Origin: Minisyncoccota bacterium
GTDB lineage: Bacteria; Patescibacteriota; Minisyncoccia; Phycocordibacterales; GWA1-40-21
Direction of reading: 5' to 3'
DNA: 64,000 bases
Assembly: GCA_041659365.1 (NCBI GenBank)
Contig: JBAZYH010000001.1
Location: 37,590 to 101,589, forward strand
This document shows, piece after piece, positions 3,074-57,298 of the stretch. Each line of letters starts with the position of its first letter. Within the stretch, counting starts at the first letter, position 1. Position numbers and translations under genes: made by a program. A model generated the notes under the pieces. It was not told the DNA's origin and did not search any database. It saw only the letters and a list, made by a program, of their open reading frames with translations.

Positions 3074-4063
3074 CTAATCACTATCATTCTCTATTTTCTT
3101 ACCATTTAAAGCTAGTGTAATAATATGATCTAGAAAATGAGGAAAAGCACAACCAATAGCTTCTAATGATTTGGGTAATAATGATTCTTTTGTTAGACCA
3201 GGAAGTGAATTAACTTCGAGTATATATATCCCCCTCTTGTGACTTACAATGAAATCAGACCTCGAATAATGTCTTAAACCAAGTACCCTATGGGCTTCTA
3301 CCGCCATATTTTGTATGGTCTCTTTTTCTTTTGAAGAAAAATTACCCGGACATACTTCCTCTGAACACCCAGAATATTTTTCATCATAACCCCAAAAGCC
3401 TATTTCTCTGGGCTTAAGAATCTCGATAGGTAAAAGTGGATAAATACTTTTTTCTCTAAAATTTTCTATGACACCACATGTTGCTTCCCTTCCTTGTATA
3501 AATTCCTCAACAATTAAAAAATCTGAATGTCTAAACGCCTCCTCCATGGCAGGAATTATATCTTTAACGGATTTAACAATAGTAACACCGAGAGAAGAAC
3601 CGCTACCCCCTGGCTTCACAATCGCTGGCATAGGGAATGTTTTAAAAATCTCTTGTGCTTTTTCTTCCGTATTTTCACCTTTTTTAACAACTATATAAAC
3701 AGGAGTTTTTAGTCCAGCTTTTATAAAAAAATCTTTTGCAAGTACTTTATTCATACCAATAGCAGAAGCCAGAGCTTTGGAACCAGTGTATTTTACACCA
3801 AAATGATTCATCAACTGTTGAACTTTTCCGTCTTCACCATATTCACCATGAAGAGCATTAAAAACAACATCAACATCTCGAAAAACTTTTGCAGGAGCTA
3901 CTGAAACACCATCAACATACCACCCACCATTTTTAGAAATAAAAACATCTGTGGGAATATATTTATCAGGTAAATTTTCTAAAACACTCTTCCCTGTTTT
4001 AAAAGAAACTTCTGATTCCCTGCTAGGTCCGCCACGTAAAACAGCTACTTTTATTCTTTTCAT
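3074..4063 (-). CDS. ddl: D-alanine--D-alanine ligase
   Basis: Full-length ATP-grasp Ddl pattern: KVAVLRGGPSRESEVSFKTG, ALHGEYGEDGKVQQLMNHFGVKYTGS, KPGGSGSSLGVT, EVNSLPGLT. Confidence 0.9.
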   Translation of the reverse strand: MKRIKVAVLRGGPSRESEVSFKTGKSVLENLPDKYIPTDVFISKNGGWYVDGVSVAPAKVFRDVDVVFNALHGEYGEDGKVQQLMNHFGVKYTGSKALASAIGMNKVLAKDFFIKAGLKTPVYIVVKKGENTEEKAQEIFKTFPMPAIVKPGGSGSSLGVTIVKSVKDIIPAMEEAFRHSDFLIVEEFIQGREATCGVIENFREKSIYPLLPIEILKPREIGFWGYDEKYSGCSEEVCPGNFSSKEKETIQNMAVEAHRVLGLRHYSRSDFIVSHKRGIYILEVNSLPGLTKESLLPKSLEAIGCAFPHFLDHIITLALNGKKIENDSD

Positions 4064-4142: not shown

Positions 4143-4538
4143 TTATTCGCTTATGGATGTAAATTCAACTTCTTTACCGATAACACTGACTTTATACAAC
4201 TTTCCAATCTCAGGAATAGCCATATACTTACGATCAGTCAGCCAAGTAAAAACATTGCAAAGTATAGGTTCCCTCTCTTTTCCCTCCATTACATCAAGAA
4301 GTATGTAAATTCCATGTATATTGCGACAATAACACAGTATTTTTACAACACGACCGCCTATTTCACCAGCGAAATCTCTTGTTGGTTTACCAAGACTTTT
4401 CTTGCTACCAGAAGCAATTCCCTTATTAAAAGCTACCCCTTTCGCGTCATTAAGGACAAGAAGCATCCCTAAAAATAAGAAAACAGCAAAGATAAAAACT
4501 GTCATAAAGACCCGAAACCAAAACATACTCATGTACAT
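4143..4538 (-). CDS. hypothetical single-pass membrane protein
   Basis: N-terminal TM helix followed by a 100-aa soluble domain. No family recognised. Confidence 0.4.
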   Translation of the reverse strand: MYMSMFWFRVFMTVFIFAVFLFLGMLLVLNDAKGVAFNKGIASGSKKSLGKPTRDFAGEIGGRVVKILCYCRNIHGIYILLDVMEGKEREPILCNVFTWLTDRKYMAIPEIGKLYKVSVIGKEVEFTSISE

Positions 4539-4600: not shown

Positions 4601-5932
4601 CTATTTTGTAAAGATAGACCTTTTTTCTCTATGATATTTAATAGCAAACCTATGAGCTTCACTGTTTGCAAGTAAAATATCGTTTGAATACTTTTCTGTT
4701 ATATTTTTAGATCCCAATATTGCTTTCGGTTTATGATATTCATCTTTTAAGACAGAAACAATCTCAATTTTAGATACTTCGCTCACCAAGGTCTCTCCTT
4801 TTTGAGGATTCAAGGAAAGACCTTTCTTCATTTCATTCAAAACTTTTCTAGCAACATTTATCTGAGCTTTTCCACCATCTACCACAATAATCTGAGGGAA
4901 AGCCCATTCTAAATGTTTAAACCTTCTCTCTAAAATTTCTCTCAAAGCATCAGTATCACTCCCCTTACTATTTCTTATAATAAATTTTCTATATTCATTT
5001 TTATTTATTTCTCCGTTTTCTATTACAGTCATTACACCAACATTATTTGTACCTGAAAGATGAGCTACATCATAAGCTTCAATACGAAACAGATGCGGAC
5101 TAGACGCGGATTTTATGCTGACTTGACGCGGAAAATTAAAAACATTTTCTTCATTATATTCAATATTCGACATTCTGTATTCATCTTTTATAAGAGCTAC
5201 ATCTTGAATATGATTTAGTGCGAAAATAGTTTTTTTAATATTATTTGCTTTTTCGAATTGTTGATTCTTAGCAAAAATGTTCATCTCTTTTTCAAGATTT
5301 TTTATTATTTGTTTTTTTCTACCTTCAAAAAATAATTTTATATTTTTAATGGTTTTTTGATATTCTTTCTTTGTAACCAAACCAACACAAACACCAGGAC
5401 AAAGTCCTATTTGATAATTAAAACATGGTTTATCCTGACCAATCTTACATTTATCTCTAAAAGGGAAAATTTTCCTTACTATTTTTATAGCTTCTTTAAG
5501 CTGACTTCCGTTTGTGTATGGTCCAAATTTTTCTTTAATCGAGTATTCTAATTTTTCAATATTTTCTAAATTTCTTCCACGTTCAACTAAAACTCTAGGA
5601 TAGTCCTCTTTTGTAATAACAACATAATTAAAACTCTTATTATCTTTTTCTTTTGTATTATATTTTGGTTGATGTTTTTTTATAAGCTCAGCTTCTAAAA
5701 TAATTGCCTCGAGAACTGAGTCTGTTTCTATATAATCAATTTTATCTGCAAGAAAAACCATATCCACAATAAGAGGACTTCTCATGGCTATCAAATCACT
5801 AGAAAAATAACTTTTTACTCTATCTTTAAGAGATGTAGCTTTTCCAATATACAAAATCCCTTTTCCTTTTTTGAAAAGATAGACACCAGGATTTTCTGGT
5901 AAAATATTATTTTTTATATATTGACTATTCAT
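4601..5932 (-). CDS. uvrC: excinuclease ABC subunit C (UvrC), short form lacking C-terminal HhH domain
   Basis: GIY-YIG N-terminus (PGVYLFKKGKGILYIGKATSLKDRVKSYF), UVR-like motif (FEKANNIKKTIFAL), and RNaseH-like endonuclease domain (RIEAYDVAHLSGT...IIVVDGGKAQI). 443 aa against about 600 typical. Confidence 0.85.
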   Translation of the reverse strand: MNSQYIKNNILPENPGVYLFKKGKGILYIGKATSLKDRVKSYFSSDLIAMRSPLIVDMVFLADKIDYIETDSVLEAIILEAELIKKHQPKYNTKEKDNKSFNYVVITKEDYPRVLVERGRNLENIEKLEYSIKEKFGPYTNGSQLKEAIKIVRKIFPFRDKCKIGQDKPCFNYQIGLCPGVCVGLVTKKEYQKTIKNIKLFFEGRKKQIIKNLEKEMNIFAKNQQFEKANNIKKTIFALNHIQDVALIKDEYRMSNIEYNEENVFNFPRQVSIKSASSPHLFRIEAYDVAHLSGTNNVGVMTVIENGEINKNEYRKFIIRNSKGSDTDALREILERRFKHLEWAFPQIIVVDGGKAQINVARKVLNEMKKGLSLNPQKGETLVSEVSKIEIVSVLKDEYHKPKAILGSKNITEKYSNDILLANSEAHRFAIKYHREKRSIFTK

Positions 5933-5995
5933 ATTTAATATGATTACATATTATCAGAAGTTATTAAACAACTCAAACAAAAAAAGGAGCTGATT

Positions 5996-6262
5996 ATGTT
6001 TTGGTCTTATGTTATGCAATCCCGCATTCTTACTGGAATACTTATCATTATTCCTGTAATTCTTTTTTTACTCTCCACGTTTGACAAAAGAGACGAAAAA
6101 AAAGAGATACTGGAACTTGAGCTTGTCGATACAAGTGATTCTGAAACAGATATGGTGGGAATAAGAAAAAAGGGAGTATTGTTTAGACGTAAACTTTACG
6201 CCGTTGCGATAGTTTTTATTATACTTTGTCTACTCAAAGAGTGCTTCTTTTGGCACTTCTGA
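5996..6262 (+). CDS. small two-TM membrane protein
   Basis: Strong RBS aaggag 8 nt upstream; two hydrophobic helices; followed by terminator accccgcgtacacaacgcggggt plus T-run at about 6268-6300. Confidence 0.5.
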   Translation: MFWSYVMQSRILTGILIIIPVILFLLSTFDKRDEKKEILELELVDTSDSETDMVGIRKKGVLFRRKLYAVAIVFIILCLLKECFFWHF

Positions 6263-10098: not shown

Positions 10099-10809
10099 TT
10101 ATTCAAGTAGTAACAATATTGTAACCGTTGTCCCTTCATTTAGAGTTGAATCTATTTTAATACTACCACCATTCATTTCAAGTATTTTTCTTGTAGTATA
10201 AAGACCAATTCCACTTTTTCCAGGTTTCATTTCTATAGTATTTTCACCCTTAATAAATCCATCAAAAATATTTTTTAATCTTTCTGGGGAAATACCGACA
10301 CCTGTATCTTTTACAATTAGTCTTAAACTACTACTAATTTTATCAACAGAGATAATAACCTTACCGTTTGGCGAATATCTAAGTGCGTTGTCTACAACGT
10401 TTATAATAGCAAGTTCTATCGTCTCCATATCAGCAAAGGCGGTGGCCTCAGTACATCTATTATACTCAACTATATTATTTTTTTCTTGAACTAAATATTT
10501 TAAATTTTTTAAGACATTATCTATCAATAAACATAGATTAAATCTCTCTTTTTTAAAATCAAGCTTTTTACTGTCTTTAAAAAGATTTAATACTTCCTCT
10601 GTAATATTTATAGACTCCAAAACTTTATTATAAGACTCTTTTACTAATTGAATATCTCCGTCCTTTTTTTCTGAAATAATTGACTCAAGTAGCCACCTTG
10701 CACCATTTAATGGAGTACGAAGTCTATGAACAAGAGCCATAATTAATGTTTTATCAAAACTACACATCCTTAGATCTTCTTCCTTTTCCTTTCTCTTAAA
10801 AAAATTCAT
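10099..10809 (-). CDS. sensor histidine kinase (soluble; HisKA + HATPase_c)
   Basis: H-box LVHRLRTPLNGARW, N-box NVVDNALRYS, G-boxes KDTGVGISPERL and GKSGIGLY. Overlaps or abuts the receiver gene, so a two-component operon. Confidence 0.8.
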   Translation of the reverse strand: MNFFKRKEKEEDLRMCSFDKTLIMALVHRLRTPLNGARWLLESIISEKKDGDIQLVKESYNKVLESINITEEVLNLFKDSKKLDFKKERFNLCLLIDNVLKNLKYLVQEKNNIVEYNRCTEATAFADMETIELAIINVVDNALRYSPNGKVIISVDKISSSLRLIVKDTGVGISPERLKNIFDGFIKGENTIEMKPGKSGIGLYTTRKILEMNGGSIKIDSTLNEGTTVTILLLLE

Positions 10810-10999: not shown

Positions 11000-13063
11000 T
11001 TATTTCTTCCTTTTAATAGTTTTGACCTTTGGAGTCATTACCTTTATTTTTTCTTTCAACAATAAAATTTCGTCTCGAAGAATAGAAGCGGACTCGAAAT
11101 CTAATATTTTTACAGCGGCATTCATCTGTATTTCTTTCTGTCGAATAAGCTTTTCTGGATTTTTAACAGAGGATACCTCATCTATTCTCAAAAGCTCCTG
11201 CACGGCTTTATCATGATCACTTCTCAAATGTTCAGTAATATCTTTTATAGCCTTAATTATAGTCCTTGGAGTTATGCCATTTTTTTTATTATAGGCTATC
11301 TGTATATCTCTTCTTCTATTTGTTTCTTCTAAAGCTCTTTCTATAGAACCTGTGATTCTATCTGCATAAAGAACAACCCGTCCAGCTACGTTTCTGGCTG
11401 CACGTCCTATTGTCTGTATAAGTGAGGTATCCGAACGCAAAAATCCTTCTTTATCAGCATCAAGTATTCCTATAAACTCTACTTCTGGAAGATCAAGACC
11501 CTCTCTGAGCAAGTTTACTCCTACAAGACAGTCAAACTTCCCTCTTCTAAAACTTGTAAGAATTTCTATTCTGTCTATAGTTTTTATTTCACTATGTAAA
11601 TATTCTGCTTTAACACCTTTTTCTTTTAAATATTCACTAAGATCTTCTGCCATCTTTTTAGTAAGTGTTGTAGCAATAACTCTTCCGCCTCCTTTTATAA
11701 CTTTTAATGATTCATCTATAAAATCAAAAACTTGAGATTTATTTTTATTCTTCACTTCAGTAATCGGCCTTATTTCTACAACAGGATCAATAAGTCCAGT
11801 AGGCCTAATAACCTGCTCAACTATTTGTTCAGAATTTTCTCTCTCGTAATCTCCTGGAGTTGCTGAAGTAAAAATAACTTGATTTATTCTCTCCTCAAAT
11901 TCATCAAACTTTAGTGGTCTATTGTCCTTTGCAGATGGAAGCCTAAAACCATAATCTATAAGAGTTTTCTTTCTTGAAGCATCTCCCGCATACATACCAC
12001 GAATCTGAGAGACAGCTACGTGTGATTCATCTATAACAGTAAGAAAATCTGGAGTACCATCTTCTTTTTTAGGAAAATATTCAAGCAGACTGTCTGGAGC
12101 TTCTCCTGGATTTTTACCAGAAAAATGTCTGGAATAATTTTCTATACCATTACAATAACCAACCTCTTTTATTAAAGCGAGATCATAAGTAGTTCTCCTT
12201 CGAAGTCTTTCTGCTTCAAGATTTTTACCTTCCTTTTTCAAATCTTCGAGTTGTTTTTCCAACTCCGCTTTTATACTTTTGAAGGCTCTTTCTTGTTGTT
12301 CCTTATCTGTAATAAAATGTTTTGCAGGAAAGATAAAAATCGATTGTATATTATCTTCAACAATATTTCTTGAAACAGAATCTATTCTGGTAATAGCTGA
12401 GACTTCGTCATTCTCAATATCTATCCTTATAATAATCTTTTCGTTTACTGGCATTACTTCAATAGAATTACTTACTGCTCTAAATGTTCCAGATTTGATA
12501 TCAGAATTTGTTCTTTCAAAGTAAACACTTATAAGCTTCCTTACTAAATCTTGTCTTGAATAACTATCTCCTATTTTTAGTTTAAGATTAACTTTTTCAT
12601 ATTCCTTTGGACTTCCTAAACCATATATACAAGAAACTGATGCGACAATTATCACATCTTTCCTTGTAAGAAGTGCCTGAGTAGAAGCATGACGAAGTCG
12701 ATCAATTTCCTCATTTATCATTGCCTCTTTTTCTATATAAGTATCTGTAACAGGCATATAAGCCTCTGGCTGATAATAGTCATAATAAGAGACAAAATAA
12801 TGTACAGCATTATCAGGGAAGAATTCTTTATATTCTTGAGCAAGCTGAGCCGCAAGGGTTTTATTGTGAGCTATTACAAGAGTTGGTTTCTGTATTTGCT
12901 GGATAACATTTGCAACTGTAAAAGTTTTTCCAGAGCCAGTAACACCAAAAAGGGTTTGTTTTTTAAACCCCTTTTTAATCCCTTCAACTAGCTGTTCAAT
13001 TGCATTTGGCTGGTCACCAGCGGGAGCATAATCAGCTCGAATTTTAAACTTATTTTGTGACAT
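11000..13063 (-). CDS. uvrB: excinuclease ABC subunit B (UvrB)
   Basis: ADYAPAGDQPNAIEQLVEGI, Walker A GVTGSGKTFTVANVI, helicase motifs, C-terminal UVR domain. The track ORF starts at 13084, but the likely start is the Met at 13063 (MSQNKFKIRADY), because the upstream codons fall inside the repeat element. Confidence 0.9.
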   Translation of the reverse strand: MSQNKFKIRADYAPAGDQPNAIEQLVEGIKKGFKKQTLFGVTGSGKTFTVANVIQQIQKPTLVIAHNKTLAAQLAQEYKEFFPDNAVHYFVSYYDYYQPEAYMPVTDTYIEKEAMINEEIDRLRHASTQALLTRKDVIIVASVSCIYGLGSPKEYEKVNLKLKIGDSYSRQDLVRKLISVYFERTNSDIKSGTFRAVSNSIEVMPVNEKIIIRIDIENDEVSAITRIDSVSRNIVEDNIQSIFIFPAKHFITDKEQQERAFKSIKAELEKQLEDLKKEGKNLEAERLRRRTTYDLALIKEVGYCNGIENYSRHFSGKNPGEAPDSLLEYFPKKEDGTPDFLTVIDESHVAVSQIRGMYAGDASRKKTLIDYGFRLPSAKDNRPLKFDEFEERINQVIFTSATPGDYERENSEQIVEQVIRPTGLIDPVVEIRPITEVKNKNKSQVFDFIDESLKVIKGGGRVIATTLTKKMAEDLSEYLKEKGVKAEYLHSEIKTIDRIEILTSFRRGKFDCLVGVNLLREGLDLPEVEFIGILDADKEGFLRSDTSLIQTIGRAARNVAGRVVLYADRITGSIERALEETNRRRDIQIAYNKKNGITPRTIIKAIKDITEHLRSDHDKAVQELLRIDEVSSVKNPEKLIRQKEIQMNAAVKILDFESASILRDEILLLKEKIKVMTPKVKTIKRKK

Positions 13064-13078
13064 AATTTTGTTTTTGTG

Positions 13079-13154
13079 TGTCATTCCCGTGAAGACGGTA
13101 ATCCATGAATATTATATTTCTGTCATTGCGAGGTAGTCCGTCGCAATCCAGGTT
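13079..13154. repeat. two short palindromic repeat elements (TGTCATT-hairpin-AATCC family)
   Basis: tgtcattcccgtgaagacggtaatccatg (13079-13107) and tgtcattgcgaggtagtccgtcgcaatccaggtt (13121-13154). Confidence 0.6.
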
Positions 13155-13289
13155 ATATTAACTGATTCTATATTACCCTTGAATGAATAATAATAACATT
13201 TGACAATCAAACAATGATTATGCTACATTTTAAAAGGAAAGACAAGTGTTTTTTTTAAAAAAAAACACAAAGAAAAAGGATAGTACGTT

Positions 13290-13592
13290 ATGGAACTGTC
13301 AAAAGAAAGAATGGGTAAGATTGCAATATTAATGCTCAAGAAAATCTATGAGAGACACCAGAGTAAAATGGGTATTCTCGGCCACATCAATGCCGTGGAG
13401 TTCGTGGAAGATATTTCAGCTGATTGTGCCGACCTTCCCAAGGAAGACGACATCAAGCTCGAAGAATACTTCGCTGTAATGAGTAAGATTCTTCCGAAAG
13501 AAAGTCAGGGAACATACGATGAGGCAGTGAAAAATTTCCTGGAGAAAAAATTAGTTGCTACAAAGTCACCCGAACCCGAATCGAAAAGCTGA
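13290..13592 (+). CDS. hypothetical small acidic protein; GC-rich (about 42%) relative to genome
   Basis: RBS aaaaaggat; clear codon periodicity; followed by GC-rich terminator aaaaccgcgtgcacgacacacgcggttttctt (13655-13690). Confidence 0.5.
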   Translation: MELSKERMGKIAILMLKKIYERHQSKMGILGHINAVEFVEDISADCADLPKEDDIKLEEYFAVMSKILPKESQGTYDEAVKNFLEKKLVATKSPEPESKS

Positions 13593-13654
13593 TCTTTTTT
13601 ACAGCATTTTGACAAAGGTTTTCAAGGACGGAACAATCATCCCTACTTGAAAAT

Positions 13655-13690
13655 CAAAAACCGCGTGCACGACACACGCGGTTTTCTTAT
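13655..13690 (+). terminator. intrinsic terminator (copy 1 of an identical pair)
   Basis: ccgcgtg-cacgaca-cacgcgg stem-loop plus T-run. An identical 36-bp sequence sits at 14204-14239. Confidence 0.6.
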
Positions 13691-13795
13691 TTTTTAAAAA
13701 TTGAGTTCAAACTAAAATTGACTTAATCTGACTTATTATGTAGTCTTTTAACTAGGAAATCAAGTTCTCAAACAAAACGAGTAAAAGGAGCCAGT

Positions 13796-14182
13796 ATGAA
13801 AAGGTTTTTAGTCCGATCATCGAAAGAGAACCAGTTTTGGACTTTTTTGATCAAAAAAAGCCGTAACGGAAAAATGGGGTTATGGTTTGTGATGGTGTAT
13901 GTTAAGAGTCTCAACTTTATTACCCTTTCCCCCGTCTGGAGAAAGATTGAAAATAATGGGTTACCAAAAAATATTGGTACCCATGGCCGTTTCATTCTTG
14001 GTGGAGACATCAAGCTACTTGGTGGTGACGATGCTGGATCAAATGAAAAAGAATACATCTCACAAACAACACAAAGTGGCTCTGTTAAACACACACTTCC
14101 TTGTGACGGTTTTGGCAGAGAAAAAATATTTCGCACTCTTCTCTTACTTTCAAAAGAAAGCTCTGGAGAACAGGTTGTCTAA
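13796..14182 (+). CDS. hypothetical protein; moderately GC-rich
   Basis: Consensus RBS aaaaggagcc, 5 nt, then ATG; followed by the second copy of the identical terminator (14204-14239). Overlapping alternative-frame ORFs (13899-14462 +, 13768-14136 -) are judged spurious. Confidence 0.4.
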   Translation: MKRFLVRSSKENQFWTFLIKKSRNGKMGLWFVMVYVKSLNFITLSPVWRKIENNGLPKNIGTHGRFILGGDIKLLGGDDAGSNEKEYISQTTQSGSVKHTLPCDGFGREKIFRTLLLLSKESSGEQVV

Positions 14183-14257
14183 GGCCCAAAACCTTAGGTT
14201 AATCAAAAACCGCGTGCACGACACACGCGGTTTTCTTCTGTCACTTAAGCGACAAAA

Positions 14258-14725
14258 TCAGTCGAATCGTTTACAATTTCTACCTACAAACCAAGGTTTT
14301 TTCTCTAAATATTCAATAATAAACTCCCCTTTTCTTTTGTGGACATTATACCTTGCCTTAAAAGTTAACCATCCACAAATATCAACATTTCCCTTTTTAA
14401 TTACGTCAACCGGTAATTTAAAAAGAGAACAAAGAGTCAGTCTTGATTCTTTATCAAAATAACCAGATAAAAAATAATCACTATAATTATATTCTATATT
14501 TTCAATACCTGTAATTACAACAGATATAGCAATTGCAGTTGTACTTTTTTCCCATCCTTTTATTGGTTGTAAGAGAATTTTAAAAATTACAGGAAAACCA
14601 AAAGGCGAATTTCCCCCACTACTACCTAATGATGGTAAAGTAATTGAAAGCGAAGTTAAAACACTATGAAGTGAAGGTCCATCATCGATACTTGTAGTTA
14701 CCAGTTCTCTTTTTTCGGTAGTCAT
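14258..14725 (-). CDS. hypothetical protein
   Basis: Good RBS (aaaaaggagagtcgtATG); 155 aa; no family recognised. Confidence 0.45.
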   Translation of the reverse strand: MTTEKRELVTTSIDDGPSLHSVLTSLSITLPSLGSSGGNSPFGFPVIFKILLQPIKGWEKSTTAIAISVVITGIENIEYNYSDYFLSGYFDKESRLTLCSLFKLPVDVIKKGNVDICGWLTFKARYNVHKRKGEFIIEYLEKKPWFVGRNCKRFD

Positions 14726-14885
14726 ACGACTCTCCTTTTTGAATGAACAAGCGTATTAGTTGATGAATACACGATACATCCTTATTTCCAGTTTTACCTA
14801 GAAACGACCCAACCATACAGTCAGGAATTAATTCATTTTTATATTATATATAATATGTAGTAATGTCAATTTTTAGGATTATAAA

Positions 14886-14921
14886 TTTTACACATATACG
14901 CCATGGCGTATATGTGTAAAA
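14886..14921. repeat. perfect palindrome TTTTACACATATACGCCATGGCGTATATGTGTAAAA (copy 1 of 3)
   Basis: Perfect inverted repeat centred on CCATGG, flanked by T- and A-runs. It lies downstream of the tgt stop, so it is probably a bidirectional terminator. Confidence 0.6.
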
Positions 14922-14940
14922 TTAATTTATTAAAATACTT

Positions 14941-15066
14941 AACCTGGATTGCGACGTCAGAATACTTCCTCGCAATGACAGAAGGGGAATTTTGCGAAGC
15001 AAAATTCCCCTCTCTCCTATTTATTTTCTTTTTGTCATTGCGAGTTACTACGTCGCAATCCAGGTT
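14941..15066. repeat. two short palindromic repeat elements in opposite orientation, plus a central hairpin
   Basis: aacctggattgcgacgtcagaatacttcctcgcaatgaca (14941-14980); ggggaattttgcgaagcaaaattcccc hairpin (14984-15010); tgtcattgcgagttactacgtcgcaatccaggtt (15043-15066). Confidence 0.55.
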
Positions 15067-15076
15067 AATTTTTATT

Positions 15077-16378
15077 TTATTTAAGATATTTACTTAAAAA
15101 TTCTTTTCTAAATTTATCAAAATTATTATCTAGTATACTCTGACGGATTTTTTTAACTAGATTAACAATAAAATAGATATTATGTATTGAAGCTAGTGTT
15201 CCACCAAGCATTTCTTTACCATGGAAAAGATGACACAAATAAGCTCTAGAATAATTCTTACATGTATAACACGCGCAATCATCTTCAACGGGTTTTATAT
15301 CTATTCTAAACTCGTTATTCATTATATGAATCTTCCCTGTCTTAGTGTAAATAGTTCCGTTTCTTCCAAGCCTTGTTGGTAATACACAATCAAAAAGATC
15401 TATACCATTTTCGATTCCCATAAATAAATCTTCTGGTTCACCAATACCCAAAAGGTGTCTTGGTTTTTCTTCTGGAAGTATCTCATTTACCCATTTTACA
15501 GCAGTAGACATATCTTCTTTAGCGAAAGAACCACCTATTCCAAAACCATCAAACTTTTCTCCATCTATCTCCATTTCTGAAATTACTTTTGCAGATTTCT
15601 TTCTTAAATTTTCATCTCTACCACCTTGGATAATTCCGAATAATGCTGGGCCAAAAAAATCCTGGATTCCCGCCTCCGCGAGAATGACAGATTCGGTTTT
15701 TGTTTCTTTCAACTTTTCACTTTGAACTTTTAACTTGAGATGTTCTTCCAGACAGCGCTTTGCCCAAGAATGAGTCCTCTCAAGTGCCTCCTCTTGATAC
15801 TTCAAATCTTCGGATGGTGAAGTACACTCATCAAAAGCAAATATCATATCTGCACCTAAGTTATGTTGTATCTGTATAGATCTCTCAGGAGTAATATAGT
15901 GAACAGAACCATCTATATGAGATGTAAAAGAAACTCCATCCTGTCCTATCTTTGCCAGCCTTGGAGCATTTGAATCATCAAATCTTTCAGGAATCAAAAG
16001 AGATGGATTAGTTATTTGTATAACTTTTGATATTTCTTTTCCATAAGCAGCACCAAGAGAAAAAACTTGAAAACCACCAGAATCAGTCATACTCGGTCCG
16101 TGCCAGTTCATCATTTTATTTAAACCACCCATTTTCTTCACAGATTCATCTCCAGGCTGAAGATATAAGTGATATGTATTTGCAAGGACTACTTGAGCTC
16201 CAGTATCTCTCACCTGCTCAGGATTGACCGATTTTACTGTCCCCTTAGTCCCAACCACCACAAAAGCAGGGGTTTCTATTATCCCGTGAGCTGTTTCTAT
16301 AGTTCCTGCTCTTCCAAGCTTTCCTTCAAGCTTTTTTTCTATTTTAAAATTAATAGCTTTCACTTGGTTAATATACAT
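15077..16378 (-). CDS. tgt: queuine tRNA-ribosyltransferase
   Basis: GRAGTIETAHGIIETPAFVVVGTKG, VLANTYHLYLQPG, zinc site CACYTCKNYSRAYLCHL. The track ORF runs to 16477, but that extension overlaps a repeat element, so the Met at 16376-16378 (MYINQVKAINF) is the likely start. Confidence 0.85.
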   Translation of the reverse strand: MYINQVKAINFKIEKKLEGKLGRAGTIETAHGIIETPAFVVVGTKGTVKSVNPEQVRDTGAQVVLANTYHLYLQPGDESVKKMGGLNKMMNWHGPSMTDSGGFQVFSLGAAYGKEISKVIQITNPSLLIPERFDDSNAPRLAKIGQDGVSFTSHIDGSVHYITPERSIQIQHNLGADMIFAFDECTSPSEDLKYQEEALERTHSWAKRCLEEHLKLKVQSEKLKETKTESVILAEAGIQDFFGPALFGIIQGGRDENLRKKSAKVISEMEIDGEKFDGFGIGGSFAKEDMSTAVKWVNEILPEEKPRHLLGIGEPEDLFMGIENGIDLFDCVLPTRLGRNGTIYTKTGKIHIMNNEFRIDIKPVEDDCACYTCKNYSRAYLCHLFHGKEMLGGTLASIHNIYFIVNLVKKIRQSILDNNFDKFRKEFLSKYLK

Positions 16379-16430
16379 GAATAAATATATTACTGCAAAG
16401 AGATAAAAAATGCATTTAAGATAGAGAGTA

Positions 16431-16551
16431 AAGCTGAGCGTTTTAAAAGCCTTACGGAAATAAATTTGTAGCAACAAATTTATTGAGTAGAGAAAAAGCC
16501 CCGCGACGGCGGGACTTTTATCGTGCTTTCAAAACGCTCTGCGAGCGAGCC
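16431..16551. repeat. about 120-bp intergenic repeat (second copy, inverted, at 42118-42246)
   Basis: The reverse complement ggctcgctcgcagagcgttttgaaagcacgata...ttctctactca...ttccgtaaggcttttaaaa...gctcagc matches 42118-42246 with a different internal hairpin. Confidence 0.5.
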
Positions 16552-17123: not shown

Positions 17124-17138
17124 TATAATTTATCCATG
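17124..17138 (+). promoter_or_regulatory. extended -10 (TGaTATAAT) ending 6 nt before the LOG start codon; possible leaderless transcript
   Basis: gatgtgatataatttatccATG; no room for a Shine-Dalgarno. Confidence 0.3.
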
Positions 17139-17867
17139 ATTTTTAAAAATATTTTTTCTAATAAAAAGGAATCCAATGTAGTAAAGGCAGTAAATAATTA
17201 TATATCAGCTGGCCCCATAACTACCAAAAGGATGGAAGAAATTATTAAAAAAAGGACAAAAACCACTGATAGAGAGTTTGAAAAAGGATATAAATTAATA
17301 AAGAAATATCCAAGATCAGTAAGTATCCTAGGTTCAGCAAGATTCAAGGAAGATAATATATACTACAAGCAAGCACGATCTCTAGCATATAGAATAGTAA
17401 AAGAACTAAAATATGCTGTAGTTACTGGTGGTGGTCCGGGGGTAATGGAAGCAGCAAATAGAGGGGCTTTTGAAGGGGAAGGTGTTTCTCTTGGTATCAC
17501 TATCAAACTTCCAAAAGAACAGGGTACGAACAAATATGTTACTGAATTTGCAGAATTTGAATATTTTTTCAGTAGAAAAACAATATTGTTTTTCTCAGCA
17601 GAAACTTATATTTATTATCCTGGAGGTTTTGGTACTATGGATGAATTTTTTGAAATAGTAACATTAATACAAACCAAAAAAATACCTAAAGTTCCAGTAG
17701 TTCTTGTTGGAAAAGAATTCTGGCAACCGCTTCTTGCTCTCATTAAAGAAGAATTATATGAAGATAATGCAACTATAAACGAAATCGACATGGAACTTTA
17801 TAAAATAGTTGATTCTGAAGATGAAATATTAGATATAATTCGAAAAGCTCCATATAGACAGGAATGA
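17136..17867 (+). CDS. LOG-family protein (Rossmann-fold nucleotide-binding; lysine-decarboxylase-like / cytokinin riboside 5'-monophosphate phosphoribohydrolase family)
   Basis: Motifs VVTGGGPGVMEAANRGA and YYPGGFGTMDEFFE. Uses a TGA stop. Confidence 0.8.
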   Translation: MIFKNIFSNKKESNVVKAVNNYISAGPITTKRMEEIIKKRTKTTDREFEKGYKLIKKYPRSVSILGSARFKEDNIYYKQARSLAYRIVKELKYAVVTGGGPGVMEAANRGAFEGEGVSLGITIKLPKEQGTNKYVTEFAEFEYFFSRKTILFFSAETYIYYPGGFGTMDEFFEIVTLIQTKKIPKVPVVLVGKEFWQPLLALIKEELYEDNATINEIDMELYKIVDSEDEILDIIRKAPYRQE

Positions 17868-18461: not shown

Positions 18462-18633
18462 TGTCATTCCCGTACAGACGAGAATCTAGTATTAATCAAT
18501 ACAACCTGGATTCCCTTTTTCAAGAGAATGACAATACAAAAAACTAATTAACCTGGATTGCTTCGTTCCTCGCAAAGACAATACTCATACAAATACTAAT
18601 ACTGGATTCCCGCCTACGCGGGAACGACAATAC
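18462..18633. repeat. cluster of four short palindromic repeat elements (TGTCATT...AATCC family), 9-16 bp apart
   Basis: tgtcattcccgtacagacgagaatctagtatt; aacctggattccctttttcaagagaatgacaatac; aacctggattgcttcgttcctcgcaaagacaatac; actggattcccgcctacgcgggaacgacaatac. Confidence 0.6.
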
Positions 18634-18640
18634 AAAAAAC

Positions 18641-18677
18641 GAGGAGACACCTTTTTGAGGATTTAAGGTCTCACCTC
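18641..18677. repeat. conserved imperfect hairpin element GAGGAGACACC-loop-GGTCTCACCTC (copy a), flanked by A- and T-runs
   Basis: caaaaaacGAGGAGACACCtttttgaggatttaaGGTCTCACCTCgtttttt. Other copies at 25861-25897, 30035-30071 and 30629-30665; partial copy at 46805-46828. Confidence 0.6.
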
Positions 18678-18735
18678 GTTTTTTGTTATTTTCCGCGTAA
18701 GGTCAGCGTGGTTCCGCGTCTTGTCCGCGATAGAT

Positions 18736-25825: not shown

Positions 25826-25860
25826 ATCCTTATTATACTCATTTTAATGAAATAAAAAAT

Positions 25861-25897
25861 GAGGAGACGCCTTTTTTAATTCTCAAGGCCTCACCTC
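25861..25897. repeat. conserved imperfect hairpin element (copy b) with compensatory change
   Basis: GAGGAGACGCCttttttaattctcaaGGCCTCACCTC; A>G on the left arm is matched by T>C on the right arm, compared with the other copies. Confidence 0.6.
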
Positions 25898-25971
25898 ATT
25901 TTTTAAATTATAAAAATATTTATCAATACTTTATAAACTTTAAACTTTTTACTTTTAACTACTTCAGTTAA

Positions 25972-27546: not shown

Positions 27547-28188
27547 TTATCGAATACAACGAAATAAACCTATATCACCATCATTGTTATATGTTAAATT
27601 AGGAACAACAACACCATTACCATATTCAACAATATAAAACATTCCACCATCTTCTGTTTCTGTACTAGATAAATAAAAACCAGCTTCACTATTTCTTTTA
27701 AATTTTAAATCATTATTTCCAAAAACTTGATAAGTTAAAGTTTCAATAATTTCATCTTTTGTTGGAAGTCTTTTACCCTTAGAAAAACATTTATCTTTTG
27801 CGTAAGAATAAACACCCTTATCATCTTCATCATCCCATAAATTAAGACTATATTCTGAACATTTATCTGTTGTCTCTCCACAATTAATACCAAAATACAT
27901 TAACTGAGGATTAGGAGTAATTTCTGGTATATAAACCTTACTTTCGTCAGATAATGCTACTTCTAAATCATTTATGGTACCCCCAGGATAATATCCGTTA
28001 TCAGAATAAAACATATTTATAGCATTTTTAACTTGTGCAAGCTGTTGTATTCCAGCAGTTTCTTTTGCTTTTTCTTTTGCATTATTTAAAGAAACTATAA
28101 CAATAGTAGTTAAAAACCCAATGATTGATACAACAACCAGTATTTCTATAAGAGTAAAACCTTTTAAAAATTTATTCCTATTTTTCAT
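27547..28188 (-). CDS. type IV pilin-like protein (prepilin-type N-terminal cleavage/methylation domain)
   Basis: N-terminus KGFTLIEILVVVSIIGFLTTIVIVSL is the class III signal (G/FTLIE) plus hydrophobic helix; the C-terminal globular domain has several Cys. Confidence 0.7.
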   Translation of the reverse strand: MKNRNKFLKGFTLIEILVVVSIIGFLTTIVIVSLNNAKEKAKETAGIQQLAQVKNAINMFYSDNGYYPGGTINDLEVALSDESKVYIPEITPNPQLMYFGINCGETTDKCSEYSLNLWDDEDDKGVYSYAKDKCFSKGKRLPTKDEIIETLTYQVFGNNDLKFKRNSEAGFYLSSTETEDGGMFYIVEYGNGVVVPNLTYNNDGDIGLFRCIR

Positions 28189-29233: not shown

Positions 29234-29923
29234 TTAATGATTATACTTAATATTCATCTCTCTATCCATATCGTCCATATATTCTTTTGTGGTTTTAAGT
29301 TTTATATCTTTTATTGATAAAACAGCATTTACTTCACCGCGACTAATTAATTTAAATACTAATTGCAATTTTGTTGATTCAAATATTGGTTCAGCTGTAC
29401 CATCCATATAATCATCACGAGACATCTGAAGATCTGAACCAATATATCCAATTATTTCAGAATTGTCATTTAAATCTTTAAGAGATACAACAAAATAGTC
29501 TCCATCACCAGCCTTGGTAAATTTATAATTAAAAGTCAAAACTCCACCATCAAAATCTTTCGGAACATCAACTACTGCAAACACACCAGCATTAGCTTCT
29601 TCTTTTATGAGATACTCACCATTATTAAATATAACATCCCCAAATGTTTCAAAAATATTTTTTATTGTGTTTGTATTAAATTCACTTATTGATAAAACTT
29701 TTGATTTTATTGTTGTCGTCCCAACATTTCCATCAGAAACTGTCATATTTACTACTTTATCATTATCAATAATATTATCAGTAGTCGTTGTTGCTATTAT
29801 GGAGATAGTATTTTGTACATTTATTTTTTTATTTACATAAATATAAAAACCCCCACCAATTAATAACAAAATAATAACTGCAATTATTATTGAAAGTTTA
29901 AAATATTTTTGATTATTTTTCAT
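29234..29923 (-). CDS. hypothetical membrane-anchored extracytoplasmic protein
   Basis: N-terminal TM; Thr/Asn-rich linker; 150-aa domain; no family recognised. Confidence 0.4.
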   Translation of the reverse strand: MKNNQKYFKLSIIIAVIILLLIGGGFYIYVNKKINVQNTISIIATTTTDNIIDNDKVVNMTVSDGNVGTTTIKSKVLSISEFNTNTIKNIFETFGDVIFNNGEYLIKEEANAGVFAVVDVPKDFDGGVLTFNYKFTKAGDGDYFVVSLKDLNDNSEIIGYIGSDLQMSRDDYMDGTAEPIFESTKLQLVFKLISRGEVNAVLSIKDIKLKTTKEYMDDMDREMNIKYNH

Positions 29924-30034
29924 AATAAAATTATATCAAAATCTATTTAATAATGATACTTTAATTTATTTTATAAATACCACTTTGTCTTTACGAGTAG
30001 AAAAAAATAATCCAGATTTAATAAAACAAAAATC

Positions 30035-30071
30035 GAGGAGACACCTTTTTGAAGATTTAAGGTCTCACCTC
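30035..30071. repeat. conserved imperfect hairpin element (copy c)
   Basis: aaaaatcGAGGAGACACCtttttgaagatttaaGGTCTCACCTCaattttt; downstream of the RRM gene stop region. Confidence 0.6.
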
Positions 30072-30131
30072 AATTTTTGTTTAAAAAAAAACACACTTTC
30101 GTGTGTTTTTTTAAAAAACTCTAAGATAATA

Positions 30132-30398: not shown

Positions 30399-30628
30399 TC
30401 TCTAAATATATTAACACTAACTTAATAAAACCCTAAAATTTTCCAGGAGATAGAAAGATGACTAACCTTTCAAAAATATCCAAGATACTTCTTAGTTATT
30501 GACAAGTATATACCATATTGAATATTTTGTCAACATCAAAAATATCCTATTTTATAAGGGTATCTGTTGATAACTTTAGTTTATACAAACTTAATTACCT
30601 TCTATAGATAAATAGAAATAAAAAAACT

Positions 30629-30665
30629 GAGGAGACACCTTTTTAAAGATTTAAGGTCTCACCTC
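30629..30665. repeat. conserved imperfect hairpin element (copy d), immediately downstream of rpoD
   Basis: aaaaaactGAGGAGACACCtttttaaagatttaaGGTCTCACCTCggtttttt. Confidence 0.6.
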
Positions 30666-30681
30666 GGTTTTTTCTACTTAT

Positions 30682-42117: not shown

Positions 42118-42374
42118 GGCTCGCTCGCAGAACTTTTCTAAAGCACGATATAAATTTTTTCGTCAAAAAATTTATTCTCTACTCAGGTAATTTTTTGCTA
42201 AAAATTACCTTCCGTAAGGCTTTTAAAAAGCTCAGCTTCGCTCGCTATTGTGAATTCAATATCCTTGTGAGGTGAGTATTTTTAGTATTGTATTTGTATT
42301 GTCATTCCTGCGTAGGCAGGAATCCAGTATTATCGTATTTGTGTCATTACGAGCAAGGCGTAGTAATCCAGGTT
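42118..42374. repeat. repeat-rich leader upstream of rpoB: about 120-bp repeat (copy of 16431-16551) followed by two short palindromic elements
   Basis: ggctcgctcgcagaacttttctaaagcacgatataaa...ttccgtaaggcttttaaaaagctcagcttcgctcgc (42118-42246); ttgtcattcctgcgtaggcaggaatccagtatt (42299-42331); tgtcattacgagcaaggcgtagtaatccaggtt (42342-42374). Confidence 0.55.
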
Positions 42375-42508
42375 AATTGAATTTCCCCTTATTTATAGAC
42401 ATATTTATGAATTTATACAAAATCATTGACAAATATAGTAATAGGGTGTATAATAGGATGTAGGAAGTAAATCAACCCCAGTAAGGTGATTTTGAAAAGG
42501 AGGGTTTT

Positions 42509-42910
42509 ATGAAAAACTGGATGCTCGGTGCACTAATGATGGGATTAGGGTTTTTACTCTTTGTTTCCGTCTGTACACGTACACTAGGTCCCTGTAATAA
42601 AAAATCAGAGACCCAGACCAAAACCGAAATCGAGGAGGTTGTCGCAACTACCTTGGGTTGGAGGGAAATCAAATCCCTGCCAGTCCCTGTTGTGACTACC
42701 AACGCGAGCATTTATACTTATGTCAGTCAGCTGAAATTCGGATTCGGTGATGGGCCGATTCACACTGCACTGATTACCAAAGTAGTGACTTTTAAGTACT
42801 GGAAAATCGGTGACGAAGTTCTCGTCGTAATGGTTCCAGGAACAGTCGGCAACATTCCGACACCAACCTTCATCGTGATCGATTATCGTCCACAGGAACA
42901 GAAGAAATAA
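42509..42910 (+). CDS. putative lipoprotein, hypothetical; strongly GC-rich (about 47%) relative to genome
   Basis: Strong RBS aaaaggagggtttt-ATG; signal peptide with lipobox-like FVSVC; followed by terminator agcacctagcgaaagcgggtgct plus T-run (42947-42978). Confidence 0.5.
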   Translation: MKNWMLGALMMGLGFLLFVSVCTRTLGPCNKKSETQTKTEIEEVVATTLGWREIKSLPVPVVTTNASIYTYVSQLKFGFGDGPIHTALITKVVTFKYWKIGDEVLVVMVPGTVGNIPTPTFIVIDYRPQEQKK

Positions 42911-42981
42911 TCCTGTAGTTCGATGAACACAATCACAAACAGCAGCACCTAGCGAAAGCGGGTGCTGTTTTCTTTTTCCCC

Positions 42982-43020
42982 GTCATTGCGAGAAGGTAAT
43001 CCGACGTCGCAATCCAGGTT
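42982..43020. repeat. short palindromic repeat element
   Basis: gtcattgcgagaaggtaatccgacgtcgcaatccaggtt. Confidence 0.55.
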
Positions 43021-48012: not shown

Positions 48013-49203
48013 ATGATGAAAAAGTCAGTCGTAGTATGTTATTTATCTATTCTTTCCCTCTTCACTATGGGGATAGGATTTCACGCAGGAATTTACTCAA
48101 ACTTCTTGCGTTCTGCCGGACTAGATGAACTTCAAATAAATCTAGTAAATGTGTTCTTCTTCGTGACACTGTTTCTGTTTGAAATTCCAACAGGTATCTT
48201 TGCAGATGTGTATGGTCGTAAGAAATCTTTCTTGATTTCTTGTTCCCTACTTTCTGTATCAATGCTTGTGTATTCTTTCTCAGAAACGTTCTGGGGTTTC
48301 TCTTTTGCAGAAACCATCGCAGCAATAGGTATAACTTTCTACAGCGGTGCTTTCCAAGCATGGTTTGTAGATAGTTTAAAACACCATGGATATGGAGGAA
48401 AATTAAACAAAGTATTTGCATGGGAGAGCACGACAAGATCACTTTCTTGTATAGCAAGTGCGATTGTTGGTGGATACCTTGCAGATATTTCATATTCCCT
48501 ATCATGGCTCGCTGGAGGAATATTCTATATCATTACACTCGTGATTTCAGCAGTTGTAATGAAAGAAGAATACTTCAAACATAAGCACCACTCACTTGGA
48601 GAAGCTCTAAGTGTAATGAAGTTAACAGCAATTGGGAGTATTCGTTTCACTCGTAGAAATAAAGCATTTCGTTTTGTCGTCATTATCGGCACAATACAAA
48701 TGTTTTGTTTTATGGCTCCCAATATGCAATGGCAAAAAATATTCATTGATAAAGTAAATTTGAATGTCTATATGGGGATTGTTATGGCATTCATACAAAT
48801 CATGGTCATTATTGGTAGTCAAATATCTAGGAAAAATATTTTTAATTTTTCTACAAACGAGAAAGTAGGTATGGCAATAAGCCAACTAATAATCGGTATC
48901 GGAATAACATTCACAGTCATATTTCAAAGTTTTCCGATAACAATAGTATTTTTCTTGATGCACGAGGTCGGAAGAGGTATGTTTGGACCAATCAAAAGTA
49001 GCTATCTTCAGGAAAATATTCCTTCGAAGAAAAGGGCTACTATTGGTTCATTTGAGTCAATGTATACACATATCGGTGGGGCTTTAGGACTTGTCGCGTC
49101 TGGTTGGATTGCTAAAGATATTGGTATTCCGGCAGCATGGATCATGTCTGGCTTAATCTTAATAGTTATGAGTATCTTTGTGTTTGTTAAAAACAAAAAA
49201 TAA
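48013..49203 (+). CDS. MFS transporter
   Basis: 12 predicted TM helices; MFS signature GIFADVYGRKKSF in loop 2-3. RBS aaaaaggtgg. Confidence 0.8.
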   Translation: MMKKSVVVCYLSILSLFTMGIGFHAGIYSNFLRSAGLDELQINLVNVFFFVTLFLFEIPTGIFADVYGRKKSFLISCSLLSVSMLVYSFSETFWGFSFAETIAAIGITFYSGAFQAWFVDSLKHHGYGGKLNKVFAWESTTRSLSCIASAIVGGYLADISYSLSWLAGGIFYIITLVISAVVMKEEYFKHKHHSLGEALSVMKLTAIGSIRFTRRNKAFRFVVIIGTIQMFCFMAPNMQWQKIFIDKVNLNVYMGIVMAFIQIMVIIGSQISRKNIFNFSTNEKVGMAISQLIIGIGITFTVIFQSFPITIVFFLMHEVGRGMFGPIKSSYLQENIPSKKRATIGSFESMYTHIGGALGLVASGWIAKDIGIPAAWIMSGLILIVMSIFVFVKNKK

Positions 49204-57034: not shown

Positions 57035-57298
57035 TTATCTGGTATAGTAGCTTTTTGTGGGATTAGTAATACCGATAAAAAAAAGACCGAAAATACCAAA
57101 AGAAAAACATGTAAGGATATGCGGCTTATGTAATTGGGATATCTTGAATCTGATTCCCTTTTGAGTAAAAATCGATGTAATCAAAAAAGTAAAAATACCA
57201 GATAAAAAATAAATCCATAAAAAATCAATTCCTATCACCAACCAAAGTATCATCATTAAAGTAAATAATACAAGGGCAACACTTTTTTTCATATTCAT
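57035..57298 (-). CDS. small 2-3 TM membrane protein
   Basis: 87 aa, hydrophobic. Confidence 0.35.
   Translation of the reverse strand: MNMKKSVALVLFTLMMILWLVIGIDFLWIYFLSGIFTFLITSIFTQKGIRFKISQLHKPHILTCFSFGIFGLFFIGITNPTKSYYTR

Follow-up and report, generated by a model that had tools for sequence, protein, structure and literature searches.

The window analysed here, a stretch of 64,000 nt from contig JBAZYH010000001.1 of a Minisyncoccota bacterium, contains a small gene island between uvrB and tgt. Two plus-strand genes, designated ORF1 and ORF2 (for open reading frames 1 and 2), and a convergent 155-aa gene on the minus strand make up this island. A further small gene, referred to as the third gene, lies elsewhere in the window and forms the third cassette together with its control signals. 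Exact protein matches were found under the locus tags WC827_00290, WC827_00295 and WC827_00410 on a 118-kb contig of a metagenome-assembled genome labelled Candidatus Paceibacterota. The GC content of the window is 32.4%, and nearly all of its genes are located on the minus strand. An earlier note on this DNA described ORF1, ORF2 and the third gene as GC-rich, foreign-looking cassettes, either acquired horizontally and possibly mobilised together with their terminator, or highly expressed under different constraints. The positions of these genes and of the elements around them are given in Table 1.

Composition and translation signals of the small genes

GC content at synonymous third codon positions (GC3s) was compared with that of 31 long native genes in the window, which also served as the reference for Shine-Dalgarno (SD) signals. 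The native genes had a GC3s of 0.175±0.031, and ORF1, ORF2 and the gene at 42509-42910 deviated from them with z-scores of 8.5, 4.9 and 9.0, respectively. In 251 stretches of 100 codons from native genes the values reached at most 0.354, with 0 of 251 exceeding it. The first and second codon positions (GC1 and GC2) of the anomalous genes were ordinary and the anomaly was confined to synonymous sites, so amino-acid composition does not explain it. The deviation therefore stood up to the codon-level check that the earlier note had called for, and the RNA polymerase genes rpoB and rpoC, named in the same check, had an ordinary third-position GC content (GC3) of 0.18-0.22. At third positions of the cassette genes G and C were each roughly doubled, and such a parallel rise is more suggestive of a biased base composition than of a preference for codons that end in C. 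Over whole genes, the GC content of 40-42% reported for the two island genes was borne out for ORF1, ORF2 fell slightly below that range, and the third gene measured 45.0% rather than about 47%.

An SD-like motif was present upstream of one of the 31 long native genes, in agreement with the earlier statement that most genes here lack a strong SD. Consensus SDs had also been ascribed to all three GC-rich genes; ORF2 (AAAGGAG) and the third gene (AAGGAGGG) do have strong ones, but ORF1 has only AAGGA. In six of the 31 long genes an extended -10 box, TGATATAAT, ends exactly 6 nt before the ATG, which suggests that these genes, which include 918-1841, 3074-4063, 10099-10809, 17136-17867, 27547-28188 and 29234-29923, may give rise to leaderless transcripts. 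Judged from these upstream regions, the core genes appear to use leaderless or SD-independent initiation and a handful of small orphan genes appear to use SD-led initiation. Other SD-led genes in the window were located at 4143-4538 (-), 5996-6262 (+), 57035-57298 (-) and 48013-49203 (+). These are three small orphans without a Pfam match and a major facilitator superfamily (MFS) transporter, with GC3s of 0.23-0.29 compared to the native 0.175, and they may be further members of a class of autonomous accessory units.

Table 1 Positions of the genes, predicted control signals and repeated elements in the window.
Feature	Positions	Strand	Description
ORF1	13290-13592	+	100 aa, GC 41.6%, GC3s 0.44, SD AAGGA; orphan small protein
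ORF2	13796-14182	+	128 aa, GC 38.8%, GC3s 0.33, SD AAAGGAG; class A of a clade-restricted family
155-aa gene	14258-14725	-	orphan, conserved third island member, SD AAAGGAGAG, GC3s 0.13
Third gene	42509-42910	+	133 aa, GC 45.0%, GC3s 0.46, SD AAGGAGGG; hydrophobic N-terminal anchor/signal
Promoter P1 of ORF1	13200-13229	+	TTGACA, 18-nt spacer, TACATT, upstream TG; then leader of ~55 nt
Promoter/leader P2 of ORF2	13718-13795	+	TTGACT, 17-nt spacer ending TG, TAGTCT, leader, SD AAAGGAG
Promoter and leader of 155-aa gene	14726-14869	-	TTGACA, 17-nt spacer, TAATAT at 14869-14841; leader of ~115 nt
Promoter and leader of third gene	42426-42508	+	TTGACA, 17-nt spacer, TATAAT, 12/12 consensus; leader of ~50 nt with AAGGAGGG
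Terminator T-A, copy 1	13652-13688	+	hairpin 3' of ORF1; identical to copy 2
Terminator T-A, copy 2	14201-14237	.	between convergent ORF2 (+) and 155-aa gene (-)
Small palindrome	14240-14253	.	GTCACTTAAGCGAC; adjoins T-A copy 2, 3' of 155-aa gene
Intrinsic terminator of third cassette	42941-42977	+	stem and preceding 3' untranslated region kept in L013 and L016
Two REP-like elements, left island edge	13080-13105, 13122-13150	+	GTCATTCCCGTGAAGACGGTAATCCA, GTCATTGCGAGGTAGTCCGTCGCAATCCA; just upstream of uvrB start
Two REP-like elements, right island edge	14945-14979, 15034-15062	.	adjoin tgt stop codon
Two REP-like elements upstream of third cassette	42301-42326, 42343-42370	+
REP-like element closing third cassette	42982-43016	+
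D7 hairpin	14884-14923 (repeat stretch 14886-14953), 57418-57485, 57857-57924	.	ACACATATACGCCATGGCGTATATGTGT, perfect 30-nt palindrome
D1 hairpin family	18629-18687, 25849-25907, 30023-30081, 30617-30675		59 nt, 73-92% identity

A predicted bidirectional terminator repeated within the island

The repeat designated T-A is 37 nt long (AATCAAAAACCGCGTGCACGACACACGCGGTTTTCTT) and was found in two exact copies. The earlier report of an identical repeat behind both ORF1 and ORF2 was correct, but its length had been given as 36 nt and its positions lie 3 nt lower than stated there; the sequences flanking the two copies are unrelated, as had also been noted. No further copy was present in the window at up to three mismatches, and 0 of 100 shuffles gave any match. 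T-A consists of an A-tract, an 11-bp stem with six G-C pairs, a 7-nt loop and the T-tract TTTTCTT. In the forward direction it folds with -17.9 to -19.2 kcal/mol (z = -5.0 and -3.5), and the reverse strand folds with -28.2 kcal/mol (z = -5.7) and continues into TTTTTGATT. By these structural features T-A is the predicted bidirectional intrinsic (Rho-independent) terminator of the array.

The related genomes are represented by contigs or loci labelled L001-L022, and comparison with them rests on approximately ten metagenomic contigs, several of them short. T-A lies between the convergent ORF2 homologue and the 155-aa gene in the window, L001, L006, L017 and L020. The window copy is identical to that of L001 at 37 of 37 positions and to that of L006 at 36 of 37, the sole change being in the loop, whereas identity at the four-fold sites of uvrB and tgt reaches no more than 0.64-0.73 and 0.47 in the same genome pairs. 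T-A is therefore conserved far beyond neutral sequence, loop included. The T-A core is also identical in L012 and L017, where differences from the window are confined to the T-tail. In L020 and L021, three cassettes are closed by one identical variant, AAAAACCGCGCGATGCGACACCGCGCGGTTTT, which differs from the T-A of the window by a compensatory U:A to C:G change in the stem and by a difference in the loop. All 11 stem pairs are maintained in nine of nine T-A copies.

ORF1 homologues elsewhere end in a different hairpin, designated T-B, which indicates that the ORF1 cassette took on the T-A of the array in the lineage of the window. Searches for the exact T-A pattern gave no match in IMG/VR and a single one, L012, in the JGI metagenomes. 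The earlier note had proposed the repeat as a marker of cassettes throughout the genome; with two copies in the window and this single match outside it, T-A is, as far as these pattern searches reach, rare, bound to the uvrB-tgt locus and no genome-wide cassette marker. The small palindrome that adjoins T-A copy 2 has counterparts in other genomes that differ in sequence yet are palindromic, of the GTGACTTAAGTGGC type in L001, TCACCTAGGTGA in L006 and GTCACCATATGAC in L017.

Position and content of the island in related genomes

The order uvrB(-), ORF2 homologue(+), 155-aa homologue(-) and then tgt(-) was found in L001, L002-5, L006-7, L017, L020-21 and L022, with tgt seen beyond the array only where the contig extends that far. 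Without exception, ORF2 homologues are encoded on the strand opposite to uvrB, a short way downstream of its start, and the convergent 155-aa homologue is usually next. Both flanking genes, uvrB and tgt, border the island in the window, L001, L002, L006, L012 and L017. Island content is ORF1, class A of the ORF2 family (ORF2-A) and the 155-aa gene in the window; ORF2-B and the 155-aa gene in L001; a single unrelated coding region, X, in L012; ORF2-B, a 150-aa gene, GrpB, a 161-aa gene and GNAT in L017; and an 81-aa gene, ORF2-A, ORF2-B and the 155-aa gene in L020. ORF1-family genes were found in the window, L006, L008, L018 and L019 and not in L001, L012 or L017. Islands of other genomes contain as extra genes orphans of 69, 81, 85, 102 and 136 aa, GrpB and GNAT, and the small island genes of the relatives all have a strong SD and a hairpin terminator of their own. 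As to presence or absence in relatives, ORF2 and the 155-aa gene are syntenic, which speaks against a recent foreign origin, and ORF1 is patchy, which speaks for it.

Promoter and terminator modules recur next to unrelated coding regions. L012 is a close relative of the window (89.7% nucleotide identity at the 5' end of uvrB), and its island runs from a P2-type module through the unrelated coding region to T-A and then directly to tgt. By tblastn, this coding region had no match in the window or in any compared locus. In P2 the -10 element was assigned by conservation alone; the L012 module matches P2 at 90% identity over 73 nt, and the one before ORF2-A in L020 matches it at 89%. When 24 cassettes were compared over the 100 nt preceding and the 110 nt following each of them, modules common to different coding-region families were revealed, and in L006 the promoters of the 85-aa gene and ORF2 are 91% identical over 47 nt. 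The P1 module (GATTATGCTACATTT...) is kept upstream of ORF1-family genes in L006, L008, L018 and L019. By reading of the sequences, the ORF2-family genes of L002 and L022 are preceded by a P1-like module (GATTATGCTAT...), and different promoter modules drive the ORF2 family in different genomes. These findings support the earlier interpretation as cassettes, in that the units are autonomous, their content differs between related genomes, and unrelated coding regions have terminator and promoter in common.

L020 and L021 contain tandem cassettes of the 81-aa gene, ORF2-A and ORF2-B, in which the first two junctions share the -35 region of the next promoter. ORF2-A and ORF2-B are 47% identical, and their third bases agree at a fraction of 0.33 of the four-fold codons that they share (n = 21), near saturation, which indicates that their duplication is old. 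Between the window and L001, UvrB is 92% and ORF2 46% identical. Allele replacement was considered for this incongruence and rejected, because L020 and L021 reveal A and B to be old tandem paralogues; differential paralogue loss accounts for it. Across the compared loci, three kinds of module (promoter/leader, coding region and terminator) are shown to be gained, lost, duplicated and re-assorted at the hotspot. No integrase, transposase, phage gene or recombinase was found within ~5 kb of either island of the window, and none was seen in the loci of relatives. In L001, ~45 nt of the uvrB 5' end recur as a pseudo-copy (5830-5935) that adjoins the ORF2 promoter, ~100 nt past the real uvrB start, and L019 has a similar fragment. 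This pseudo-copy may be a recombination scar at the island edge.

The leader of the 155-aa gene is conserved above its coding region in five genomes and has three predicted hairpins, two of them with compensatory changes. An upstream open reading frame in this leader was excluded by a 4-nt indel in relatives, and the leader had no Rfam match; it may be an undescribed cis-regulatory RNA. A gathering-threshold scan of the window against Rfam returned tRNA-Ala alone, and an E-value scan of 13000-15100 returned sub-threshold chance matches alone. The islands of two relatives contain GC-rich noncoding stretches without an ORF (L018, 1090-1250; L006, 3255-3330), which could be small structured RNAs.

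The third cassette

The third cassette has its own terminator hairpin, as the earlier note had stated. Two homologue clusters of the third gene were found, both enriched in GC3 within AT-rich contigs (0.49 and 0.36, compared to 0.12-0.20 in flanking genes). The cassette is conserved in L013 and L016 from the promoter region and leader to the T-run of the terminator, with the contig of L013 beginning within the promoter region, and changes in the terminator stem preserve pairing. The neighbouring genes are different in each of the three genomes. This cassette is better described as having been relocated or transferred within the clade. Of the cassettes that had been proposed to be possibly mobilised, the third one is found in three neighbourhoods and ORF2 at a fixed locus.

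Origin of the raised GC3

Nine of nine ORF2-family copies compared exceed the GC3 of the flanking housekeeping gene, with values of 0.24-0.46 against flanks of 0.17-0.24; in L022 the values are 0.74 and 0.43, the highest copy being in the genome with the highest background. Orthologues of elevated GC are what the earlier note had itself set against a foreign origin. Homologues of ORF1, ORF2 and the third gene were confined to one narrow Paceibacterota clade, with none outside it among 5.8 billion clustered proteins, 1.84 billion representatives and the GTDB species genomes, and the proposed look at taxonomic affiliation accordingly yielded no donor. Searches of the three proteins by tblastn against GenBank phages and PLSDB plasmids gave no match, and scans of IMG/VR with ORF2 and third-gene alignments found no relatives. 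These results showed that locus and family keep a raised GC3 in every genome examined, and they speak for a process intrinsic to the locus, possibly a recombination-linked GC bias, rather than for recent acquisition from a foreign source.

The explanation that we consider probable, though with considerable reserve, is that the small genes are autonomous, lineage-restricted units in a recombining uvrB-tgt hotspot with a uniform T-A and a GC3 excess intrinsic to the locus. Each gene would be a self-sufficient unit comprising a sigma-70-type promoter, a leader of ~50-60 nt, an SD, a coding region and an intrinsic terminator, and ORF1, ORF2 and the 155-aa gene would together represent a hotspot of fixed position and variable content, restricted to a narrow Paceibacterota clade. 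The T-A copies are the same within a genome, different between genomes and located behind anciently diverged coding regions, a pattern which points to concerted evolution and which the copies of the window fit; gene conversion or unequal recombination would be the process that homogenises them. The junction modules, together with uvrB and tgt, may serve as homology arms for cassette swaps by homologous recombination, and these swaps would probably follow DNA uptake from relatives and involve no dedicated recombinase. GC3 might then be kept up by GC-biased repair of the heteroduplexes that frequent recombination produces, i.e. GC-biased gene conversion (gBGC). This is the weakest step of the account. 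Recombination has been associated with raised GC3 in bacteria (PMC4450053), and given the signs of frequent conversion and recombination at the locus, gBGC is the most economical candidate and would most simply connect the two observations of the earlier note. The likeness to bacterial gBGC is that a locus with independent signs of recombination or conversion has raised GC3 in every genome examined.

Several observations weigh against this explanation. The excess of +0.15 to +0.3 is larger than gBGC effects usually reported in bacteria, and it far surpasses the trends described across genomes (PMC4450053) while being confined to a much smaller region. Noncoding parts of the island are not enriched in GC apart from the hairpins (0.315 vs 0.309), and the 155-aa gene of the window, with a native-like GC3 of 0.13, makes the bias uneven across the island. 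Recombination is deduced from those approximately ten metagenomic contigs, several of which are shorter than 3 kb and some possibly chimeric. A recent duplication of the terminator alone could also give identical copies within a genome, and a single compensatory event supports co-evolution of the hairpin. The third cassette lies outside the array, and its varied contexts are more in keeping with transfer or relocation than with a hotspot of fixed position.

A bolder version of this explanation, which we put forward tentatively and expect to fail rather than to hold, is that the island is a recombinase-free, "plug-and-play" expression array of the Candidate Phyla Radiation (CPR), in which uniform terminator-promoter junctions act as portable homology arms, orphan small genes are exchanged by homologous recombination following DNA uptake, and conversion drives the local GC bias (GC3 up to +0.3 above background). 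The conserved loop of T-A might in that case also reflect recognition of the hairpin by a dedicated factor. If true, such an array would be integron-like without an integrase, and it would provide an unusually clear natural case of gBGC at a bacterial hotspot.

Recent horizontal acquisition from a GC-richer donor, with a composition now decaying toward that of the AT-rich host, is the alternative that survives best, and we regard it as unlikely. The strong anomaly at synonymous sites is what such an event would produce, ORF1 is absent from the closest relatives (L001, L012 and L017), the third cassette occurs in three different gene contexts, and the spread of GC3 (0.13-0.49 in the 155-aa family, 0.24-0.74 in the ORF2 family) is as differing residence times predict. 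The anatomy of the units also resembles that of phage morons (PMC3594210). However, ORF2 and the 155-aa gene occupy the same uvrB-tgt locus in every relative with visible context, which already weakens this interpretation and does not fit the foreign origin that the earlier note had proposed for ORF2. Moreover, the GC3 excess always has the same direction and peaks in the genome with the highest background, no donor was found outside the clade, no homologue among phages or plasmids, and no integrase or transposase nearby.

Selection tied to expression, the alternative that the earlier note had itself named, appears less likely again. G/C-ending codons or a GC-richer mRNA might be favoured for translation, for mRNA stability or for the avoidance of spurious AT-rich promoters, and the best terminator could have been selected twice to give the twin T-A. 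Promoters at or near consensus (12/12 in the third cassette), strong SDs and terminators, the persistence of the GC3 excess in orthologues and the mildly raised GC3s of the other SD-led small genes (0.23-0.29) are all consistent with strong expression under such selection. Yet rpoB and rpoC are ordinary, and the 155-aa gene, with an equally strong SD and promoter, has a GC3s of 0.13, and for these two reasons codon selection linked to expression probably does not account for everything. The about equal rise of G and C at third positions also argues against it, and terminator function would maintain pairing but not the loop or exact identity.

Phage morons are independent units with their own promoter and terminator and a deviant GC content that lie between phage genes (PMC3594210), and the cassettes could on this model be morons surviving from a decayed prophage or satellite. 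The single-gene units described here share with morons a promoter of their own, a factor-independent terminator and a composition unlike that of their neighbours, and ORF1 has a weak PHROG match (phrog_29024, E = 7.9e-4). They differ from morons in lying outside any phage or prophage, among housekeeping genes in all genomes and in syntenic positions across relatives. No phage structural, replication or integration genes accompany them, and no homologues were found in IMG/VR or GenBank phages, so we consider a prophage remnant very improbable.

The chromosomal integron is the remaining comparison. In chromosomal integron arrays the attC repeats are uniform within a species. An integron-like site-specific system with the 37-nt hairpin as an attC-type site, to which we attach almost no credence, would account for tandem small, mostly orphan genes that each end in the same imperfect palindrome, uniform within a genome as attC is, but it is rejected on integrase, core sites and promoters: the array has no tyrosine recombinase in its vicinity, either in the window or in relatives, the hairpin ends AAAAAAC and GTTTTCT/GTTTTTT miss the attC cores RYYYAAC and GTTRRRY at the YYY/RRR positions, every cassette has its own promoter where integron cassettes generally depend on a common Pc, and the hairpin shows every structural part expected of a bidirectional intrinsic terminator. 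The arrays are also tiny, with one to three cassettes seen.

Encoded proteins

ORF1, ORF2, the third gene, the 155-aa gene and five further island proteins from relatives gave nothing significant in Pfam, PHROGs, NCBIfam or PADLOC. The marginal PHROG match of ORF1 was judged not meaningful, as was a similarity of the 85-aa protein of L006 to AbiGI (15.7 bits against a cut-off of 300 bits). ORF1 has two detectable relatives, 46% and 24% identical, among 1.84 billion representative proteins; the closer one is P0021, in L018. A 95-aa gene at the syntenic position in L006 is 27% identical to ORF1. The ORF2 family comprises 16 clusters, has invariant motifs and is restricted to the clade. The AlphaFold model of ORF2 is confident (predicted local distance difference test score, pLDDT, 85.5; predicted template modelling score, pTM, 0.79) and has a six-strand, two-helix fold with no significant neighbour in the PDB. 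Judging by the invariant motifs and this predicted structure, ORF2 is a real protein.

The third gene had been labelled a lipoprotein gene. A signal peptide that closes with a lipobox, [LVI][ASTVI][GAS]C, and a conserved Cys was taken as the mark of a lipoprotein, and the third protein departs from it on both counts: its putative lipobox is V-S-V-C, with V at position -1, and the Cys is absent from both homologues. The label is therefore not supported. The part of the protein that is conserved across homologues is the N-terminal hydrophobic anchor or signal, and its predicted model (pLDDT 47.5) is too poor to use. The 155-aa gene is fast-evolving, with 56% identity to its L001 homologue compared to 92% for UvrB, and the GC3 of its family ranges from 0.13 in the window up to 0.49 in relatives. 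Our guess is that these proteins serve as accessory factors that evolve fast and are expressed strongly and independently of each other, one of them membrane-anchored or exported. Because of the rapid evolution, the lineage restriction and the one membrane anchor, a further guess is that they may function where an episymbiotic cell meets its host or its phages. Further island families without a known domain were seen at L018 634-1044, L019 1399-1707, L002 6922-7131 and L020 305-550, among them a Cys-rich one with the motif IPDGCHNC and another with GPF...KCDG(E/D).

Palindromic repeats and other hairpins

Elements resembling repetitive extragenic palindromic (REP) sequences lie at the borders of both islands. 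The earlier note had all three GC-rich genes bracketed by such palindromes; this is the case for the third cassette and for the uvrB-tgt island as a whole, including the 155-aa gene, but not for ORF1 and ORF2 individually. The window contains about 23 REP-like elements in approximately 11 intergenic regions, most of them without cassettes, and the association with cassettes is one of position alone. Dispersed palindromic repeats of this general kind include REP and bacterial interspersed mosaic elements (BIME) of enterobacteria, Correia elements of Neisseria and the Rickettsia palindromic elements. The GTCATT..AATCCAG elements described here are likewise short, palindromic and intergenic, and like those of Rickettsia they are occasionally in frame in genes. 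One, at 15663-15688, is translated as 'VILAEAGIQ' within tgt (15077-16477, -). The UvrB of L008 (3088-5370) has 760 aa compared to 694 aa in the window and carries inserts of the 'SRLHGNDRE' type. The inserts in tgt and UvrB indicate that REP-like elements enter conserved genes in frame.

Two other families of terminator-like hairpins recur in the window. The D7 hairpin was also found in contigs L016 and L017, and at least three of the four D1 copies lie just 3' of native minus-strand genes. Since D1 and D7 hairpins are repeated behind ordinary genes, terminator reuse is a habit of this genome and no mark of foreign DNA. A direct repeat of 68 nt (2065-2132 and 2386-2453, 81% identical) adjoins tRNA-Ala (2664-2737) in a stretch of 40-43% GC without a long ORF.

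Relation to minimal mobile elements and implications

The island is closest to the minimal mobile elements (MMEs) defined in Neisseria (PMC3082526). The uvrB-tgt island has both structural hallmarks of an MME, conserved flanking genes (uvrB and tgt) with different whole-gene cassettes between them. As in MMEs the island is without mobility genes, and the palindromes at its borders are comparable to the Correia elements of Neisseria. The shared modules could act as homology arms, and cassette exchange by recombination is here deduced from the comparison. In contrast to MMEs, promoter and terminator modules re-assort with coding regions here while staying uniform within a genome, GC3 is in persistent excess and the host is a CPR bacterium. 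From its gene order and modules, the uvrB-tgt island can be classified as an MME-like CPR hotspot in which the uniform shared modules and the persistent GC3 excess would be new relative to MMEs.

The tiny genomes of CPR bacteria (Patescibacteria) contain accessory genes that are mostly unannotated, and this locus shows how such genes are organised and turned over: as self-contained units in a fixed chromosomal slot, with regulatory modules that are reused and kept uniform. It is also a warning for the detection of horizontal gene transfer, as a locus can stably inherit a strong GC3 anomaly and signals that look foreign. Should recombination prove to drive the GC excess, the island would offer a compact natural system for the study of gBGC in bacteria. 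The shared promoter and terminator modules are candidate expression parts for CPR organisms, which currently lack genetic tools.

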